Source of the DNA: Eubacteriales bacterium
GTDB taxonomy: Bacteria > Bacillota > Clostridia > Lachnospirales > Lachnospiraceae
Assembly: GCA_030524135.1 (NCBI GenBank)
Contig: JAUNHA010000006.1
Location: forward strand, 2,087-66,086
Reading direction: 5' to 3'
DNA length: 64,000 bases
The translations under genes were made by a program, and so were the position numbers. Below the pieces are notes generated by a model that was given only the letters and a program-made list of their open reading frames with translations, was not told the DNA's origin and searched no databases. Positions 53,194 through 61,837 of this stretch are shown here, one piece after another; position 1 is the first letter of the stretch, and each line of letters opens with the position of its first letter.

Positions 53194-53221
53194 GAGGAGC
53201 CTTGACTGGCTCCTCTTTTTT
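53194..53221 (+). terminator. rho-independent terminator of the immR-immA pair
   Basis: GAGGAGCC-ttgact-GGCTCCTC followed by T6. Confidence 0.8.
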
Positions 53222-53289
53222 ATCGCAAATGACCGCTAAGCGGGTGACAGACATTCAGACATTTTGTGCAGATACCGTCTGCACAATTA

Positions 53290-53721
53290 TCAACCTAACA
53301 TCTGTATGTGATAGAGCTTCACTTTCTCCTCGAACGGCAGCCCCGGATCAATGCCGACTTCTTCCCACGTCACACCATACGGTGCCCCGCCATCTGTATA
53401 TCCAGCGATAAAGGCAAACCGATCATCGCAGTCCTTATATAACTCTGCCAATCGCTCCAGTTCTTTCTTCTCACGCTCCAACCGTCGTTGCCGGAGCCGC
53501 TGTTCTTCTGATCTCTTTATCTGATCCAACTGCTCCTGCGTGTAGTTGACACCTAATTCCTGCAAATCTTTAGCAGCAGTCACTGCATCAACATGAAAGC
53601 GTTCACGGTAATGCTTGTTCATCTTTTTCGGCGAACCAGTATAGGTGAGCAGCCACTGTTTTCCTTTTCGCAGACGGGCCTCCTTTCGCTCAGCCTTTGT
53701 CAGTTTCTTTTTCTTTGCCAT
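53290..53721 (-). CDS. hypothetical protein (basic N-terminus, coiled coil)
   Basis: 143 aa with RBS CAGGAGA. No family recognised. Confidence 0.55.
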   Translation of the reverse strand: MAKKKKLTKAERKEARLRKGKQWLLTYTGSPKKMNKHYRERFHVDAVTAAKDLQELGVNYTQEQLDQIKRSEEQRLRQRRLEREKKELERLAELYKDCDDRFAFIAGYTDGGAPYGVTWEEVGIDPGLPFEEKVKLYHIQMLG

Positions 53722-53854
53722 TTGCTAAATCTCCTGAATTTTATACTGGTAGCTGTATCCCCGCTTTCGTTATCTTAATTGTGCAAGCAGCTCTTGCACA
53801 ATTTTACCTGATCCGCGTCTGGATATTCCAAGCCATATAATAATTTTCTTAAAA

Positions 53855-55302
53855 TTATCGTTTTCGATATTTCCGTCCTTTCGTGGTACCGTTGTCCTCC
53901 AGCAGTTCAAGCTGCACCATGGCACGAAGCAATTCTTTTGTCCGGGTTTCCCTCACATCAAGAACCGCTACAATATCCGCTACATTATGCCATGCTCCAT
54001 CATTCAGGAAGTCCAGAATCTTATTATATTGCGCCTGTGTTTTGGCGGACACATTTTTTCTGGCGCTTTTTTTGTGAAAGAAAGCGTCAGAATCGTTCTG
54101 TCCGGATCAAACTGTTCCTCTATAATCGGTTCTGTCCAACCCTCATCTTCCCACATGTTAAAGATGTTCGGAACGCCGCTTCCGGCACGTTCTCCAATGT
54201 TGATAAGGTTGAACATTTTCATTAGTACCTTATTTCGAGGGTCAGATTCCCCGCCTCTGCGCATCTGTTCCTTTCCGGTTCGGATGTATCCGGGATTCGC
54301 AAAAACCAGCTTATCCGGCTCCTTACGGATCACAACACCTCGTACACCGTAAAAATCCGCGTTCGTGAGGCAATTCGCCAACGCCTCTCTCAGTGCTTTA
54401 TGCACTGGCGTGTCATCAATCCGGTCACCACCCTCCATTCGAAAAGGCACCTTCACATCCTTGATGAGCTTGTTATAAACCCGAAAATAGAAGTCGCAGA
54501 TATTTCCAGACCATTCCCCGGAACTGGATTGAAGGCGATCCGTCCAGCGAATTGCCGGATCTAACATCTCCCGGTAATCCAGAAAGTATTCCGGGAAATG
54601 CCGGACAATGTTATATTCGTTTCCGAACATCAACATACCTGCCGCTGTAGGATGCAGCCGCTTATCCTCCGACGAAACCGCTGCCGCCCCTATACTACGG
54701 AGGTATTCCTCATCGTTTAGTCTCTCAAAGGGATGGCCCGCTTTCAGCGTTCTATGCCTGTTTCGATAACCCTGAATTGTTTCTTTATTAAGGTCAGAAA
54801 GCTCTGCATCGTTCAGCACATCCATGTCTACCGTATTTTCTTCCTGATCCCGCAGCATGGCCTTAACCTGAAGCCTCGTGCATTTATAATCCCCGGAATG
54901 TATCCTTCGGTATGTGCCACCAAACAGGTCATTGTTGATATATACCGGCTTCTGACTTCTTTTTGCCCTTGGAACTTCAATTGCAATGATCACATCATCA
55001 TTCACTTCATAGGCCGTTACATTTGATTCCGACAGTAGATTAAGGCTTACCTTATTTTGGTTGTGCAGCAGATTCCACAGGTTATCCAGTAACTTCTCTT
55101 TATCTGCCGCTTTCAGCCCAGTGGGCTTCCAATGCTTATCATCCAACTCCTCAACGCCCAGAATAATTACTCCGCCATAGGTATTCGCAAAGGCAGAGTA
55201 GGTCTCCCAGATATCATTCGGAAGACCGCCTCTGGCCTTTTTCACTTCCCTGCGGTTATCTTCCTTGTATTTGTCAAATTTTTGAATATCAAATAACGGC
55301 AT
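53855..55302 (-). pseudogene. Schlafen/AlbA_2 + HATPase_c_4 + wHTH regulator-like ATPase gene, frameshifted in an A7 run
   Basis: ORF 54004..55302 covers the AlbA_2 region (...AFANTYGGVIILGVEE) and the HATPase region (REALANCLTNADFY...FANPG). ORF 53855..54052 is its wHTH tail. On the coding strand, an A7 run (T7 at 54067-54073 on +) separates the frames, and an 8th A would join them as ...FTKKSARKNVSAKTQAQYNKILDFL... Confidence 0.75.
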
Positions 55303-55494
55303 TGAATAGCCACCTCCTGTTATAGGACTTTTTTAACAAGTACTACGCCGTCAGATCAATCTTCTTCTCGACAATCCACTCAAACACACGGCTGCACTCA
55401 TCCGACAGCTCGTCTCGGAAAACATAACTTTGATGCCAGATTGATGATCACACTGTCACCACTCACTTTGTCATACAAACGGCTTCCCCAAAAG

Positions 55495-58005
55495 TCATAA
55501 GGGTTTTAAAGATAAATAATGACATAAGTCTAGTGCGAACATCTGCTTCCTTGCTACTGAATGCATTCCGGTCATCAAATCGCTTCTTAAAACAGCAACT
55601 AACCCGTTTCGATTACTATAAACGAAGCACCCCTGCATCAGTTGGCGAATAGCTTTTCTATCGTTGTTGATTAACACTTTCATTTTCAACGCTTGTTCAA
55701 TAGCCGAGCCAGCCGTCAGCTCTTCACTCATATAACTTGCAATGATTGGTGCCAATTCATCTGAAATTGGATATTTTCTAAAATATGCAGATGTAAAAGT
55801 TTTACGAGTATTATCCTCTCGCGCAATATAATCATAACTATCCACAAATGCCTTATCTTTTTCTTTGTGCAAGTCTGGTATGGTATTGTCTCTTAACGCC
55901 TCCACACATTTTATTACCGAGCTACACCTTCTTTTAAAATAGCCATTACCAATTTTATTCGCTCTCTTCAAATAGGAGATTAACTTATCGTACTCATTAC
56001 AATATTTAATCAATTCCATGCATGGCCGAGGCGTTCCCTGTGTACTAAAGGCCGAAACAACAAAAGGCCATATTTGCTGTGCAGTGAAGAATTGCGCATT
56101 TTGAAGAATACCTGCTTTATTAACACCCAGAGCAAACAAGTCAAGCAGAAAATCATCTATCGGCAAATCCAAGCGATTCTGCTCAAACCGAGTATTTGCA
56201 GATAGAACGTCTTGATTAAACTCTGCAGGTATCCCCGTTAAAGTTCGTTTTATATTCTGAATATCTATAGGTAACGCATTAGGATCATTAGGCGCTATTC
56301 TAACCGGCAATCCCTCCTTCCCGCCGCGATTCTTAAGCAAGTAGATACTATGAGCGTTTTCTAATGTCTCCACAAGATAACTAACATCGTTCTTAGTCGG
56401 AGGAATGATTGTCAGTTTCTCCAATAGTGCCACCCATTCAGGTTTATCATCTGGAATATAGGGCATTATTAAATACATATTGCGAAGATATCCAACTTTG
56501 TCTTCATCCGATTTGGAAACTGCAATTCGTCTTGACAAATCTTCTATAATTACTTCTCGGTCTCGAACAGTAGATTCAGGTGCGGGAATGTTTTTCAAAT
56601 ACGCCTTTAATTTTTTCCCTTGTGATAGAAGGCTAAAAAACTGGTAAATATCATTTGCCGTAGTAACCGTAATATCGCGAGAACATCCTTGACCTGCATG
56701 GAGACCATTCGCTCTCAGTGTTTGTAAAATAGTAAATTTATTTACATATGACAACAAATTTGCTTTTTGTTCTGCATTTGTGTTTTTATCTTTCCAAATA
56801 AAATCGAACTCGGGAGATCCTTTTGAGATTCCCGCCTTGAACTCTTTAAGAACTTCTGTGCCAAATTTATAAACATCAGATTGAATATCTCCCTCTTTAT
56901 ACATTGCCTGGATTCCCTTTGCTTGTACAAGACACGCTTTTATTACCAACTCAACAGAAGCTCCCAAAAGGCCAATTATCGGAGCATACTTTGTTTCTTG
57001 ATGCTTAGAACGACAAGCTGTAGGAATTGACAGTCCGTATAAGGCCAAGAGATAGGATTCGATTCCACCATACAAAATCGGAATCGCTTTACTTTTCATA
57101 AACTGCGGCATACAATCCTTCCCGTGGGTCCCCTCAAAACGGTCCGGGTCAATCAGGGAGAGGAACAGGTGGAAATCGTCCTCTTTTCCATTATGAGGTG
57201 TCGCCGTCAGGAGCAAAAAGTTCTTTGTAATGTTAGAAAGCAGTCTGCCCAGAGAAAACCTGCGTGTATATTTTATCTCGCCACCCCAGATGGTGGCAGA
57301 CATTTTGTGTGCCTCATCGCAGACAATCAAATCCCATTCCGAGATTTTTAGCTTTTCCTGTATAGCATCGTTTCTGGCCAGCTTATCCAGACGGCAGATG
57401 CACAAGTCCACTTCGTTGAACACATTGCCAGTGGCCGCAGATTCAATTCTGTCGTTGGTCAGAATATCAAAATGTAAATGAAATTTCTGGAATAACTCAT
57501 CCTGCCACTGCTCCACAAGGCTTCCCGGCGAAACAATCAGGCAGCGTTTTAGGGAGCCACGAGCGATCATTTCCTTGATGAACAAACCGGTCATAATCGT
57601 TTTACCGGCACCCGGATCGTCTGCCAATACAAATCTTAGAGGGAGACGCGGCAGCATATCCTGATAGACCGCAGAAATCTGATGCGGCAAAGGTTCTACG
57701 GATGAAGTATGCACTGCCAAATATGGGTCAAATAAATGTGCAAGACCAATACGATACGCCTCTGAAGCCAAACGCACCTGATCCCCATCTGCATCAAAAC
57801 TCCATGGAAGATGACTATCTTTTACCTGAATGCTTTCTTCATCTGCTCGATAGAGCAACTGTGTTCCGGGAACACCCTTGCTATTTTTGTATGTAATTTC
57901 TATCACATTGGTTCCATACCATTGGACGGCTACCACATTAACAGGTTCATTCCCCGCTATTCCAGTCAGATGGCTACCCACTGTAATATCTTCAAGTTTT
58001 GCCAT
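55495..58005 (-). CDS. chimeric ORF: RapA/SNF2-like helicase N-lobe (aa 1-298) fused to a 538-aa region of unknown function
   Basis: The N-terminus has a Tudor/SH3-like segment, motif I DDPGAGKT, motif II DEAH and motif III LLLTATPHNG. After ...DPDRFEG the SNF2 pattern stops, with no helicase-C motifs IV-VI. GC drops from ~60 % (57121-57180) to ~38 % (57061-57120) at the junction. Confidence 0.7.
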   Translation of the reverse strand: MAKLEDITVGSHLTGIAGNEPVNVVAVQWYGTNVIEITYKNSKGVPGTQLLYRADEESIQVKDSHLPWSFDADGDQVRLASEAYRIGLAHLFDPYLAVHTSSVEPLPHQISAVYQDMLPRLPLRFVLADDPGAGKTIMTGLFIKEMIARGSLKRCLIVSPGSLVEQWQDELFQKFHLHFDILTNDRIESAATGNVFNEVDLCICRLDKLARNDAIQEKLKISEWDLIVCDEAHKMSATIWGGEIKYTRRFSLGRLLSNITKNFLLLTATPHNGKEDDFHLFLSLIDPDRFEGTHGKDCMPQFMKSKAIPILYGGIESYLLALYGLSIPTACRSKHQETKYAPIIGLLGASVELVIKACLVQAKGIQAMYKEGDIQSDVYKFGTEVLKEFKAGISKGSPEFDFIWKDKNTNAEQKANLLSYVNKFTILQTLRANGLHAGQGCSRDITVTTANDIYQFFSLLSQGKKLKAYLKNIPAPESTVRDREVIIEDLSRRIAVSKSDEDKVGYLRNMYLIMPYIPDDKPEWVALLEKLTIIPPTKNDVSYLVETLENAHSIYLLKNRGGKEGLPVRIAPNDPNALPIDIQNIKRTLTGIPAEFNQDVLSANTRFEQNRLDLPIDDFLLDLFALGVNKAGILQNAQFFTAQQIWPFVVSAFSTQGTPRPCMELIKYCNEYDKLISYLKRANKIGNGYFKRRCSSVIKCVEALRDNTIPDLHKEKDKAFVDSYDYIAREDNTRKTFTSAYFRKYPISDELAPIIASYMSEELTAGSAIEQALKMKVLINNDRKAIRQLMQGCFVYSNRNGLVAVLRSDLMTGMHSVARKQMFALDLCHYLSLKPL

Positions 58006-58014
58006 AACATTGAG

Positions 58015-58023
58015 CCCCCCCCC
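58015..58023. repeat. C9 (G9 on the coding strand) homopolymer between the XRE stop and the helicase-chimera start
   Basis: 9 C residues counted by hand. On the minus strand the sequence reads GGGGGGGGG-ctcaatgtt-ATG, so the tract occupies the RBS position of ORF 55495..58005. Confidence 0.9.
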
Positions 58024-58029
58024 ACTGCT

Positions 58030-58263
58030 TTATTTTTGCGTTTCCTGAGACTCTGGTGGCTGATCAGGAATCAATTCCATGATGTCATCGAATGTACAGC
58101 CCAGCACTTTACAAATGCTTACCAGCGTATCTGTGTTTACATTTTCCCCACGGTTCAGCTTATTGACTGTATATGTGCTGATATTAGCAGCAGCGGCTAA
58201 ATCCTTTTTTTTCATATCCTTGTCTATCAGGAGCTTCCACAATTTTTTATAGCTTACGCCCAT
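58030..58263 (-). CDS. XRE (Cro/CI-type) HTH regulator
   Basis: Trimmed to ATG 58263 (RBS AAGGAGAA). MGVSYKKLWKLLIDKDMKKKDLAAAANISTYTVNKLNRGE... Confidence 0.85.
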   Translation of the reverse strand: MGVSYKKLWKLLIDKDMKKKDLAAAANISTYTVNKLNRGENVNTDTLVSICKVLGCTFDDIMELIPDQPPESQETQK

Positions 58264-58907
58264 ATCGTTCTCCTTTTTTCGCCGAGTAAGTGGACACATA
58301 CTACTCTACATTATACACATCCAATGGCGGAGAAGCAATATTTAAATTGAGCGAAAGCTCAATTCTTTTTAGTTTTATCACAACTGTTATCAAATGTACG
58401 CTATACACGACAACCACCACAACAACTCTTTTGCAAGCAGGGCATAGGTGCTACCTATGCGTTTTTGCTTGTTGGGGAATACCTCCCCAATCCCCTCAAA
58501 GTACAATGCCTTTGGCACTGGCGGCGCATCCGTTCCGGACGCTTTTTAAACATTCACTCCAAATAAAAAGCTGAGGTGTAAATCCCCAGCCTAATCAAAA
58601 ATATTGAAGTTGCCATCCTGAACTGAACCATTCAAAGAACACTTACTCGCTATCCCACTTCAGGTTTTCCCTATGAAATCTGAATATTCTCTGATCAATG
58701 CCACCGATCAAAGCTCTTCATATAATTTACACATCATAATATGTTTTTCAACATTTTCATCGTCTATCTTGAATCCGGCATCCAAACGTACCCGTGCGCC
58801 TTGTTATAGAGGTTCTGCTAGGATTTCTCGTACTCATTATCTTTTAGTTTCTTCATTATGTATGCTCTTTTAGGACTCTGTTTGTTTTCCCCTTTTTATC
58901 CTGTATT

Positions 58908-60111
58908 CTAAAGTATATCTGCATAATATCTTCTGTTGATATTAGAAAAAATCACTTTGGCTGGGAAAAGCTTCATTCCCATTGCTGCCATTCCAACAAC
59001 ACTACATGCCCATTCCCTTAATTCATTCGGAAGTCGAAAGCTTGTCGGTTCTCCATCCTTTAGAATTGTTACTATTGGAATGAAATTTTTGTACACCCCC
59101 ACCGATAATACATTAAAAGTTTGAGAACCTTCATGTAACGACAAAAGAGGTTGCTTTCCCGAATCAAAATATACCCTCCCGCCCCTTTTATTCAGAAATG
59201 ATTCTTCATCGAAGGGAATTACAGGCTCAATAGGCAATTTGTTTCTTCTGCATTCAAAATATCTTGCTGATTGCTCACAAGCAAACGCATTATAATATTC
59301 ACCTTGCATATCTATGTCAGATCGAATCTGTTCTGCAGATTCAAAATGATTCATAAAATTCAACAGAGCATTGAATGTAACCAAATCATCCGAATAAATA
59401 CCGGGCAGGTTGGTATAGTTCGCTCTGACAAGTGCGTTTCTGAAAGACCAAGCGTTCTCTGCAAAAATATCATTAGTAGCTGAAAAGCCGAGGGTTCTCA
59501 AATACTTGATAAAGAATACCGCTGTGGTTCTTGTGTTGCCTTCTCCGAAGATATGGATTTGCCATAACCTCGAAACAAAGACTGCAAGATGATGAATAAT
59601 TTCTTCCATCGAAAGTCCTTTGTAGCTAAAGTCTTTCTCCTGCGAGAAATCATATTCAAGGGTTGCTCTCAGTTCCGAAGCGCTGCCATAAAGGACAGTC
59701 GCTCCGTCAAGCACCCATTCTTTTTTGTGATATTGTAATCTCTTATCTTGCCTGCGTGTTTATAGATACCCTGAAACAGCTTTCGGTGGATAGAGATATA
59801 CTCGGGGAGAATGAAAAAGCAGTTTCCGAAAGTATCTGTGCGATACGGGATGATACCTTATCCGCTTCTTCTGTACGCTCGTCGTCCGACAAATGTGTCG
59901 GTCTTTCCTCATAATAGCTGTCTATGAGATTTTGCGCTTCTTTTATTGTAATTTTCCCCTCAATATTTTGAATGGCCGTATCAATCAAATATTGGGAAGG
60001 TTTCAGTCCGTCCACCGCCTGAAGTCCGATTGCCGTACTCCACGCATAGCCTTTGCTGAGTTTATCCGGCTCAGACTCCTTCAGATATTCCTTAAATGGG
60101 TCTTTATTCAT
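58908..60111 (-). pseudogene. Fic family (AMPylase-type) gene with two frameshifts and a non-canonical 3' end
   Basis: ORF 59743..60111 is the typical N-terminus (MNKDPFKEYLKESEPDK...AIGLQAVDGLKPS). ORF 58908..59714 carries the Fic motif HIFGEGNTRTTA. The segment joining them reads in a third frame: ...PEYISIHRKLFQGIYKHAGKIRDYNITKK... The shifts are at the G4 run 59804-59807 and the T6 run 59721-59726. Confidence 0.8.
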
Positions 60112-60137: not shown

Positions 60138-60857
60138 TTAATCCGTCAGCAACCTGCTTAGCAGTTGTTTTCTATTATTGATAAACATTTCCGTTATTTG
60201 ATAACTGTCCGTATCTTCATACGAGCAAGTATGCAGCTTTCCATCGTCAAATGTCAATATCTCTGCGTCCGGCAGACCTAACAAAATCGGAGAATGTGTT
60301 ACGATAAAGAATTGCGAACCTTTTTTCGCACATTCATAGATTTCAAGCAATAGCGTTAATTGTCTTTGCGGCGACAAAGCTGCTTCAGGCTCATCGAATA
60401 TATAAACTCCATCTTCCTTTAGCTGACTCTGTGCGATTGCAAGAAAACTTTCCCCGTGTGATTTTTCGTGATACTTTTCCGATGGGTGTTCAATATCAGC
60501 ATATTCTTCTTCCATAGTCGCTACATTATAAAAACTTTCCGCCCGAAGAAAATATCCCCATTTTGCTTTGCGATACCCTCTGCCAAGCCGCATTGCTTCA
60601 CACAGTTCCGAATGTGAGTCATAAGTAGAAAAGCTGTAATTTTTTGTGCCGCCTTCAGGATTAAATCCATAGGCTATCGCAATAGCCTCCAGCAATGTGG
60701 ATTTTCCACTTCCGTTTTCTCCGACAAAAAAGGTAACAGGCTTACTAAAAGTCAGCTTTTTCAGTCCCCTGATAGCTTCAATTGACCTTAAATAACTTCC
60801 TCGTTCAATTTTATTCCAATCAATCTCTACTCCCTGAACAAAAAGATTATTCATCAT
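60138..60857 (-). CDS. small stand-alone ABC-type (AAA_21-like) ATPase
   Basis: 239 aa. Walker A GENGSGKST, signature-like SHGESF, Walker B IFDEPEAALS and H-loop THSP. It overlaps the upstream WYL gene end by 11 nt. Confidence 0.8.
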   Translation of the reverse strand: MMNNLFVQGVEIDWNKIERGSYLRSIEAIRGLKKLTFSKPVTFFVGENGSGKSTLLEAIAIAYGFNPEGGTKNYSFSTYDSHSELCEAMRLGRGYRKAKWGYFLRAESFYNVATMEEEYADIEHPSEKYHEKSHGESFLAIAQSQLKEDGVYIFDEPEAALSPQRQLTLLLEIYECAKKGSQFFIVTHSPILLGLPDAEILTFDDGKLHTCSYEDTDSYQITEMFINNRKQLLSRLLTD

Positions 60858-61837
60858 CTACCACTCCATTTATCGCTATCGACTCCCGAAGCATATTCTT
60901 ATACTGTTCTTTCAAGCTCTCCGGTGCAAGTATCTGCACCTTGCCGTTAAATCCAAACAGCCAGCCGAAGAATGTAGGACTTGCCGATACTTCGGTCTGT
61001 ATCCGGAACGAAGTCATATCATAGGCAAGGGTGGTAACATCTTCTCCGAAACGGTCAACCATCGTTTTCATCAGGCTGTTATCACAGCGCAAGTCTACCT
61101 TAACCTTTTCTCCGGGGAACATAAAGAATACTTCTTTCGTAAAGTTCTCAATATCAAAATCATCGGGCATTGGAAGAACTATTTTTTCCAGCATATCCGG
61201 TATCCCTGCAATGCGATCCACTCTGAAATTGATAACCTTTTGTTTCTTTTCGGAATAACCAATCACATAATAATAATCGCCGCTCCAAAGAAGCTTATAT
61301 GGACTGAGCTTATATACTTCTCCCTTGTTTTTCAGTTCTTTCTTCTTGAGTCCAGTGTAATCATAATACTGGAAGGAAATCTGTTTCCCAGTATTAATGG
61401 CATCGTTTATGGTGTCAATGATGTAGTAAATTTGCTCATTGTCCGGCTTAATTCGATTGACAACATAATTATTACGCTTGAGCTTTTCTACCTGTCCCCG
61501 GACTTGTCATCGTATGTATCTTCTCAATCAGCGCTTTGCTTTTCTTATCGGTAATCACTCTTGAGGACTCCACAGCGTCAATCAGCAGCTTTAACTCCGG
61601 CAATTCAAACTGCCGGCTTGCCACAAAATACTTACACTGCGTAGAATGAATAACCACTATATCCATTCCGAACTCCTGCAAGGCGGCAATATCCTTTGCA
61701 AGCGTTACCCGATGTGTCGATATATCATATTCATTCTTCAAAATATCCAATATTTGATTTGTAGTCAGAGTGTGTTCCTCATCGGTTCGTTCCTCTAAAA
61801 TTTTCTTTATATATAAAATTCTCGGTTTTACTTCCAT
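60847..61837 (-). pseudogene. WYL-domain transcriptional regulator gene, frameshifted
   Basis: ORF 61472..61837 is the wHTH N-terminus. The frame of ORF 60847..61266 stays open upstream to about 61490 and encodes ...QVEKLKRNNYVVNRIKPDNEQIYYIIDTINDAINTGKQISFQYYDYTGLKKKELKNKGEVYKLSPYKLLWSGDYYYVIGYSEKK... The frames meet at the C4 run 61496-61499. Confidence 0.75.

Follow-up and report, generated by a model that had tools for sequence, protein, structure and literature searches.

A probable Hma remnant left by a single large deletion in the defence cargo of a serine-recombinase integrative element

The Hma system is composed of HmaA, HmaB and HmaC (Payne et al. 2021, PADLOC) and is classified as a Type-1 DUF499-centred BREX-related system (PMC12839542). 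HmaA has been examined in Halomonas meridiana, where defence requires both helicase motif VI and the NOV_C nuclease (PMC11232893). In at least 1017 taxa, genes of the Schlafen-HisKA-wHTH type show a link to BREX/BR loci, and the HisKinase-HTH Schlafens are considered to be backup effectors of BREX and BR loci (PMC12839542). Two of seven prokaryotic Schlafens tested protected E. coli from phages, and the single one examined closely is a tRNase activated by phage (bioRxiv 10.1101/2025.07.24.666596). In the intact relatives of the locus described here, the genes run in one direction and code successively for an XRE regulator, HmaA (1167 aa), two DUF1156 proteins (923-927 and 743 aa), a HEPN_Swt1/DUF499 protein (1132-1134 aa) and a protein of 535/536 aa. 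These operons are set in the same kind of element as the present one, with an M78/HTH pair, PemK and serine recombinases.

The DNA under study (the window) is a stretch of 64,000 nucleotides from a metagenome-assembled genome (92% complete, 89 contigs, 2.23 Mb). Positions 53290-58263 of the window harbor four minus-strand genes separated by intergenic gaps of 24, 192 and 133 nt in the ORF list, in agreement with the co-oriented, closely spaced cluster seen in the first-pass annotation. In our assessment the region is very probably a remnant of Hma, a restriction-like anti-phage system, from which about 11 kb has gone through one deletion, and it most likely makes up the cargo-bearing end of an integrative element of the serine-recombinase type that formerly carried the complete system. 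The locus is thus a known defence system that has decayed, and not a new one. The annotation had called the four genes a defence-type cluster; this holds for the region, which is defence cargo, but not for the genes as one system. [quoted passage not shown] Finally, where a cassette insertion had been proposed, the remodelling is here ascribed to one deletion that took some 11 kb out of a colinear hmaA-hmaB-hmaB'-hmaC-538aa array.

The XRE gene (58030-58263, minus strand) codes for a 77-aa regulator of the HTH_26 family (PF13443, E 1.9e-21). Judging from the relatives' loci, it is the conserved first gene of Hma operons in this lineage: a 75-aa HTH_26 gene lies immediately 5' of full-length hmaA in loci L008-L011, to which nucleotide homology is unbroken over positions 58264 to 57119. 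The next ORF (55495-58005, minus strand) codes for 836 aa and is indeed chimeric, as had been suggested, with its matches to the helicase families SNF2-rel_dom, ResIII and DEAD confined to residues 1-294. This portion corresponds to codons 1-296 of hmaA (57119-58005, minus strand), and its product shares 92-94% aa identity with full-length 1167-aa HmaA. It retains the N-terminal domain and the first RecA lobe, including motif I (DDPGAGKT, residue 129), DEAH (residue 230) and TATPHNG (residue 267), but motifs IV-VI are missing, as are the inactive REase and the NOV_C nuclease.

Like Hma, the window thus contains an unambiguous HmaA sequence in these N-terminal 294 residues, and its XRE gene upstream and 538-aa gene downstream occupy the same positions as in the intact relatives. 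Descent from Hma is indicated by this orthology together with the synteny shared with loci L002-L013 and L059, and the locus resides on the same type of serine-recombinase element as those relatives. By these comparisons, an Hma (Type-1 DUF499 BREX-related) operon is represented by its head, made up of the XRE gene and hmaA codons 1-296. Unlike Hma, only a quarter of HmaA is left, and the helicase C-lobe, the nuclease, the methylase(s) and the DUF499 ATPase have been deleted, so that the locus is to be regarded as a remnant and not as a potentially working member of the system. The missing parts do not reside elsewhere in the 2.23-Mb, 92%-complete assembly, as far as it extends: tblastn with full-length HmaA recovered residues 1-295 only, profile searches and tblastn failed to detect the second RecA lobe or the NOV_C/PD-(D/E)xK nuclease, and neither of the two DUF1156 (HmaB) proteins of locus L003 nor the HmaC DUF499 ATPase gave a tblastn match.

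The deletion junction was located by blastn and by comparison by eye. Homology to hmaA loci stops at position 57119. From position 57125 on, the sequence is homologous to the hmaC-538aa intergenic region and the gene after it; the two homologies overlap by 7 nt (57119-57125), a microhomology common to both parental sequences. The ancestor would have carried the XRE gene, HmaA (SNF2 helicase and NOV_C nuclease), one or more DUF1156 adenine methylases and HmaC (HEPN-DUF499 ATPase), with a 538-aa accessory gene as a separate unit behind them. Between the two short similar sequences, a single deletion of about 11.1 kb (11,130 nt when estimated on the coordinates of L003), or about 13 kb if a Schlafen gene lay between hmaA and hmaB in the ancestor, would have taken out the whole interval from hmaA codon 297 to a point 14 nt 5' of the 538-aa start codon, and with it the remainder of hmaA, the two DUF1156 methylases and the DUF499 ATPase. 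A chance in-frame join would then account for the 836-aa ORF. With the effector half of HmaA lost together with the methylases and the ATPase, Hma restriction and modification are both gone; the methylase-free cell would face no restriction activity, and the joint loss should therefore be harmless to it.

The closest relatives of the locus share only 79-88% DNA identity with it, and its immediate ancestor is therefore not among them. The hmaA remnant carries one private substitution at columns that are otherwise invariant in 108 sequences, which points to a recent deletion. A parallel case is found in locus L011, which is 99.9% identical to L008 apart from a 3.6-kb microhomology deletion that joins hmaA codon ~282 in frame to the Schlafen gene, giving the fusion P0203. 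On this comparison of nearly identical DNA, L011 represents an independent, second in-frame truncation of hmaA. We considered a breakpoint hotspot in hmaA, given the closeness of codons ~282 and 296, and rejected it as ascertainment because the query had covered residues 1-294 only.

Beyond the junction, the 836-aa ORF consists of a gene that stands alone in the relatives, where it follows hmaC. This 538-aa gene (55495-57111, minus strand) keeps its own ATG (57111-57109) and ribosome-binding site (GGAAGGA, 57116-57122). Its product is 92% identical to P0001 and retains 64 of the 64 invariant columns of the family, whose 158 homologues are all stand-alone proteins of about 535-550 aa, or fragments, that start with MP(K/Q)F. 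The gene is AT-rich in all contexts, with a GC content of 0.38 here and 0.35-0.41 in every other setting. Members of the family appear as an add-on directly 3' of Hma, BREX, type I and type IIG systems, on mobile elements and prophages. It is speculative that the deletion has now placed the window's copy under the XRE-hmaA promoter; having its own RBS and start, and being without the hmaC terminator, the gene would probably be driven from there and translated both alone and as the fusion.

The 158 homologues contain no Pfam domain, and the 538-aa protein itself gave no match in Pfam, NCBIfam, PHROGs or PADLOC, nor, by sequence or by profile, in the PDB. Its AlphaFold2 model (mean pLDDT 78.5) is all-helical, with pLDDT values of 84-95 over most of residues 11-130 and one 10-residue block at 65. 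A RAxGLHAG (Rx4H) motif, whose R133 and H138 do not vary among 50 close homologues, nor among 16 homologues reaching down to 27% identity, invites an analogy with the HEPN abortive-infection RNases (AbiD/F-type Abi_2 and the Swt1-type HEPN of HmaC). An all-helical N-terminal domain, the R-x4-H motif and occurrence as a single-gene module in defence islands are common to both groups. Foldseek comparison of the model with PDB and BFVD yielded no fold match (best E of 0.24-0.36) and no HEPN, only one of 50 family members matched the HEPN profile PF05168 (E 0.081), and hhalign of the family against the HEPN_Swt1 domain of HmaC returned a probability of 0.1. With sequence, profile and fold thus giving no support, the HEPN idea is a motif-level lead, and the proposal that the protein is a highly diverged HEPN-like RNase with Rx4H at its active site is speculative. 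More generally, we tentatively suggest that the 538-aa protein may belong to an undescribed family of single-gene anti-phage (or anti-plasmid) effectors, a possibility that we rate as less likely than not.

The third gene (54004-55302, minus strand) is a 432-aa ORF with an SLFN_AlbA_2 domain (PF04326, E 1.8e-12), in which the Ex4ExK motif reads intact (E14, E19 and K21), followed by HATPase_c_4 (PF13749, residues 323-397, E 7.5e-11). Its intact homologues have 489-515 aa and are 81-85% identical to it. The frameshift noticed earlier was confirmed: the C-terminal wHTH is absent from the ORF and is encoded out of frame by a 65-aa ORF (53855-54052, minus strand) that aligns to the wHTH C-terminus of intact homologues of 489-503 aa (81-84% identical), and three-frame translation places the one-base change within two poly-A runs (A7/A6; 54054-54059 and 54067-54073, minus strand). 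The same 65-aa ORF had a match to the C-terminus of a Fic family (PDC-S72 positions 311-372, E 1.9e-4), which was rejected in favor of the Schlafen alignment. As in the HisKinase-HTH class of prokaryotic Schlafens, the gene combines AlbA_2/Slfn with Ex4ExK, HATPase_c_4 and a wHTH, and it adjoins a BR-type locus; it differs in that its wHTH is out of frame and its subfamily is known from sequence alone. This class is predicted to comprise tRNA-cleaving backup effectors, common beside BREX/BR loci. The gene is an independent single-gene module. It follows the 538-aa gene here, whereas the 572-aa Schlafen of L008-L010 lies between hmaA and hmaB, and the two proteins share only 21% identity.

The fourth gene (53290-53721, minus strand) codes for a 143-aa protein with no Pfam or PADLOC family; an NCBIfam match (NF038399) was disregarded at 19.2 bits against a cut-off of 40, and the AlphaFold2 model (pLDDT 79.6) produced only non-significant matches (E > 3), all to HTH DNA-binding domains. 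The protein belongs to a 90%-identity cluster of 4458 members and shows 83-94% aa identity across Faecalibacterium, Ruminococcus, Gemmiger, Dorea, Blautia and Lachnoanaerobaculum. In 18 of 19 close loci (at least 78% aa identity) the gene is followed by a convergent M78 gene, usually with an HTH partner. Nucleotide homology to the loci related by this gene starts at 53748-53754. Synteny and nucleotide homology indicate that the 143-aa gene is a backbone gene of this family of serine-recombinase elements and not part of any defence system, and that the element's variable slot for defence cargo has its inner edge at this gene.

The two hairpins which had been taken to bound the cluster do exist, but they flank the 143-aa gene exactly and not the cluster. 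Both are copies of one palindrome, TTGTGCA-N9-TGCACAA, of which 0.02 would be expected by chance. The upstream copy (53779-53801; hairpin 53777-53803) sits at the joint between cargo and backbone, and the downstream copy (53264-53286; hairpin 53266-53284) lies 4 nt past the stop of the 143-aa gene. Their folding energies are -13.9 and -14.0 kcal/mol, respectively (z-scores of -3.7 and -4.0 versus shuffled sequences). Read on the minus strand, neither has a U-tract behind it, and the sole canonical terminator nearby (53194-53215) is on the plus strand, 3' of the M78 gene. Seven related loci have the same palindrome some 450 nt 5' of their 143-aa gene, and the downstream copy is conserved at the same place in 13. 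The element resembles the ImmR/ImmA-regulated Firmicutes elements with large serine recombinases in its convergent M78-peptidase/HTH pair, its pemK-type toxin with an RNA leader, its ParB-like genes, its terminal serine recombinase and its variable cargo slot, and unlike them it shows no conjugation or phage structural genes in the window's copy. The second end of the element was not found; the missing N-terminus of a macro-domain gene, sought in order to locate that end, was detected neither in the window nor in the genome.

Viewed together, the four genes do have features of a single system, namely their common orientation, the short distances between them and the fact that three of the four products belong to defence-linked families. 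We nevertheless give next to no credence to the idea that they form a coherent unit under XRE control, an undescribed system of defence or abortive infection. Two of them are broken, and DNA homology to related loci breaks at 57119/57125, at ~55504, over 55296-54054 and at 53754. These breaks show four separate ancestries, and on this nucleotide comparison the stretch is a mosaic of four pieces, each with its own history. Among about 100 related loci the combination of XRE, chimera, AlbA_2 gene and 143-aa gene was absent from all, and homologues of the four genes occupy four different neighborhoods. Co-occurrence, which had been proposed as a check, therefore gave a divided answer: the full set recurs nowhere else, while three of the parts, taken singly, are associated with defence loci.

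In another reading, the chimera is a working new gene, in which the HmaA N-terminus and RecA lobe would sense or bind DNA on behalf of the 538-aa effector. The join is in frame, the hmaA remnant is free of decay and a second in-frame hmaA fusion is known in P0203/L011. However, chance alone puts one third of deletions in frame, the fusion is recorded on one contig only, all 158 family members are stand-alone or fragments, and the 538-aa gene has kept its own RBS and ATG. Moreover, productive ATP hydrolysis by SF2 helicases is impossible with half of the core. A working fusion is accordingly very improbable. The same in-frame join could instead be an assembly product, with the junction and/or the frameshift being artefacts in a strain whose Hma operon and Schlafen gene are both intact; the source is, after all, a metagenome-assembled genome, and homopolymer runs are prone to error. 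This we judge very improbable, since the exact 836-aa product is recorded under two source labels, in NCBI and in the separate Logan collection (one contig only), the 7-nt overlap is far shorter than assembler k-mer sizes, none of the missing 11 kb is present in the assembly, and L011 offers a natural example of the same type of deletion. For the Schlafen frameshift taken alone an artefact is more plausible, though still unlikely. The junction at 57119-57125 is probably real, given the identical product in NCBI and Logan, and a decayed Hma operon remains our preferred reading.

The locus itself adds one more case of the death of a restriction-like defence operon, and as such matters little. 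In this case a single microhomology deletion would have removed the nuclease half, the methylases and the ATPase together. Defence-finding pipelines will miss or mis-call chimeras of this kind, and it would be wrong to take the 836-aa ORF for a helicase of new architecture. Upstream of the 143-aa gene, the slot is a hotspot for defence cargo, in an element family that is spread over many genera of gut Clostridia. The 538-aa family, a well-conserved and structurally unassigned companion of methylation-based defence systems, is the one lead from this locus that is worth testing.

The four co-oriented minus-strand genes that the first-pass annotation placed at 53,290-58,263 are present as ORFs, and the locus holds the decayed remains of the known Hma system, carried on a mobile element; next to the Hma remnant lie an accessory gene of known type, damaged here (Schlafen), and a backbone gene of the element (143 aa). 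The XRE gene (58030-58263, 77 aa) carries the Pfam HTH_26 domain. It is followed on the same strand by an 836-aa ORF (55495-58005), in which SNF2-rel_dom, ResIII and DEAD match at residues 106-292 and no Pfam match occurs beyond residue 292, by a 432-aa ORF (54004-55302) with SLFN_AlbA_2 and HATPase_c_4, by a 65-aa ORF in a different frame with a weak Pfam winged-helix match (53855-54052), and by the 143-aa ORF (53290-53721), which has no Pfam family.

It had been stated that the cluster could not be matched to any named system. However, positions 1-294 of the 1176 in the PADLOC HmaA profile match residues 1-294 of the 836-aa ORF (E 3.9e-136). The full-length relatives (1167-1169 aa, with Helicase_C and NOV_C) are 88-94% identical to the window protein across these residues, and occur in Pseudoflavonifractor, Phascolarctobacterium, Lachnoclostridium and other gut Firmicutes. 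There, hmaA is immediately preceded by a 75-aa HTH_26 gene, and the XRE gene is therefore the normal head of an Hma operon; downstream lie two DUF1156 methylase genes and then a HEPN_Swt1-DUF499 ATPase gene. The textbook Hma system has one HmaB, whereas the intact related loci L002-L009 have a tandem pair of DUF1156 genes, of 923-927 aa and 743 aa (e.g., L003:1483-6528). Hma is restriction-like, combining self-marking by the methylase, sensing by the DUF499 ATPase and cutting by the helicase-nuclease (PMC12839542), and mutation of helicase motif VI or of the NOV_C nuclease abolishes defence by HmaA (PMC11232893). Since the window's HmaA retains motifs I-III only, and the methylase and ATPase are absent, the Hma system in the window is dead.

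The earlier view of the helicase ORF as a chimera is borne out: HmaA residues 1-294 are followed by a member of a separate gene family (538 aa). The proposed cassette insertion is not supported, as the 3' part of hmaA would then persist downstream of the insert. It does not: when the HmaA profile was run against the assembly that contains the window (2.23 Mb in 89 contigs, 92% complete), no second HmaA piece emerged, and tblastn queries with HmaA, HmaC and the two DUF1156 proteins yielded nothing there besides the remnant. Judged from the sequence, a single deletion explains the chimera instead. By blastn, the stretch 58264-57119 is homologous to hmaA loci and the stretch 57125-55504 to the hmaC-538-aa spacer and gene, with 7 nt shared by the two; on visual inspection, the hmaA codons encoding THG(N) continue into a spacer that carries the ribosome-binding site (GGAAGGA) and ATG of the 538-aa gene. 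The missing stretch amounts to 11,130 nt in L003 coordinates; an ancestor that possessed, in addition, the 572-aa Schlafen gene placed between hmaA and hmaB in L008-L010 would imply a loss of about 13 kb. Loss of the nuclease and the methylase in one step would entail no self-restriction.

The AT-rich composition of the second part could be read as that of a foreign cassette, an interpretation we rejected: the GC content of the 538-aa gene is 0.35-0.41 everywhere, compared to 0.43-0.57 in neighbouring genes, so that low GC is typical of it in every context. The exact 836-aa product is recorded both in NCBI and in the separate Logan collection, in one contig only, which argues against a mis-join and against a selected fusion that has spread. 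The deletion itself looks recent, as the HmaA remnant departs once, by a private, conservative substitution, from the columns that do not vary across 107 other HmaA sequences (no more often than intact genes do), and the 538-aa part has kept every invariant column of its family. A second, independent in-frame truncation of hmaA, parallel to that of the window, is found in the related locus L011 (853-2520), which is 99.9% identical to L008 (1283-6534) outside a 3.6-kb deletion. This deletion shows an overlap (microhomology) of about 12 nt and joins the C-terminal half of the 572-aa Schlafen/HATPase_c_4 gene, in frame, to hmaA codon ~282; the methylases are intact.

The 432-aa ORF contains the Ex4ExK motif (E14, E19, K21), the defining feature of Schlafen nucleases, followed by HATPase_c_4. 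The predicted frameshift is located here: homologues of 489-515 aa (81-85% identity) have a C-terminal lysine-rich linker and wHTH, the part with which the 65-aa ORF aligns, and the frame changes by one base inside A7/A6 runs at 54054-54073. Many Blautia wexlerae homologues (P0325 and P0333, with about 60 more like them) are "partial", 420-456 aa long, and all stop within a tandem KKQAIKTSD-type linker repeat; evidently, assemblies are interrupted here, in a linker that is length-variable and slippage-prone. The gene is distinct from the 572-aa gene of L008 (21% identity). Further defence islands hold its close homologues, whose neighbours there are nSTAND3, MvaI/BcnI R-M and MTaX1, or which lie behind an HTH_26 gene, and its DNA homology is limited to the gene body; it is a mobile single-gene module, damaged in the window. 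The Schlafen-HATPase_c_4-wHTH architecture is the second commonest among prokaryotic Schlafens (19%); of seven Schlafens tested, all with other architectures than the window gene's, two defended E. coli, one of them by phage-triggered tRNA cleavage (bioRxiv 10.1101/2025.07.24.666596). At least 1017 taxa have Schlafen-HisKA-wHTH genes that adjoin BREX and BREX-related (BR) loci (PMC12839542).

The 143-aa gene is widespread (4458 members in its 90%-identity cluster; 83-94% identity over many gut Clostridia genera). It is followed by a convergent M78 (ImmA-like) gene in 18 of 19 closely related loci, usually with an HTH partner, and further on, as in the window, by XRE and PemK genes. Nucleotide homology to these loci sets in at 53748-53754, some 30 nt ahead of the start codon; beyond this point the defence cargo differs among elements: L025:32-6372 bears DISARM-like helicase, MrfA-Zn (MZB), PLD and KwaB-like genes, and L027:1535-5671 an SNF2 helicase and PglZ. 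The conserved downstream context and variable cargo mark the gene as a backbone gene bordering a cargo slot, and this slot is a defence hotspot of the element family. The modelled protein is helical, with non-significant resemblance to HTH domains only. Its distant relatives (P0459, P0475, P0483, P0496, P0398; L040-L042) bear the same N-terminal module, or the conserved motif FxxIAGxTxGGxxxGxxWEExGID, fused to GNAT acetyltransferase or ACT domains.

The hairpins described earlier exist and fold better than shuffled sequences, but they flank the 143-aa gene rather than bound the cluster. Both are copies of TTGTGCA-N9-TGCACAA, with conserved arms and differing loops. The downstream copy (53264-53286) lies 4 nt past the stop codon and is kept in 13 related loci; the upstream copy (53779-53801) lies at the cargo/backbone joint, and seven loci have an upstream copy about 450 nt ahead of the gene, preceding a YjbR-like ORF that is absent from the window. 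Related elements from other genera (L021, L022, L029, L031-L033, L043 and others) have kept the palindrome, which may serve as an operator, an RNA hairpin or a recombination site.

Other damaged genes lie upstream of the XRE gene. A split Fic-family gene (58908-60111) matches PADLOC candidate PDC-S72, with positions 1-107 at 59743-60111 and 134-237 at 58908-59714; unrelated sequence replaces the last ~140 profile positions. In the region 60138-61837, an HTH/WYL regulator, apparently split into two ORFs (61472-61837 and 60847-61266), is followed by a small AAA_21/AriA-like ATPase (60138-60857), a pair that looks like a further decayed defence-type module.

Residues 299-836 of the chimera represent a stand-alone family with 158 homologues, mostly of 532-552 aa, all of which begin with MP(K/Q)(F/V)(M/L)K and none of which has a Pfam domain or meaningful name. 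In the closest relatives, the gene follows hmaC in the same orientation at a distance of 64 nt, beyond a terminator hairpin (P0001, 92% identical; P0002, 87%, 24 contigs read; and locus L059). Besides this position, seen at several loci, members follow a ResIII/Eco57I-type pair alongside type I R-M in Lactobacillus delbrueckii, and they occur within a type I R-M/Abi_alpha/T5orf172 island adjoining an integrase, in a DUF2326 island and between IS copies. In IMG/VR contigs, their neighbours are NERD-helicase, AbiJ-like and SMC-like ATPase genes, or a terminase. In 48 metagenome loci, 115 non-redundant neighbours were surveyed; those that recur belong to defence families (type IIG and type II methylases, Mrr, PglZ, BrxL, PDC-M46, PDC-S02, mad2, ATPase-Toprim and LmuB) or to mobility families (serine recombinases and transposases). 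R133 and H138 of a RAxGLHAG motif are invariant down to 27% identity, and the AF2 model is all-helical (mean pLDDT 78.5); family, profile and fold searches gave no match. Our best guess, a doubtful one, is a divergent HEPN-like RNase. This family is the sole testable novelty of the locus.
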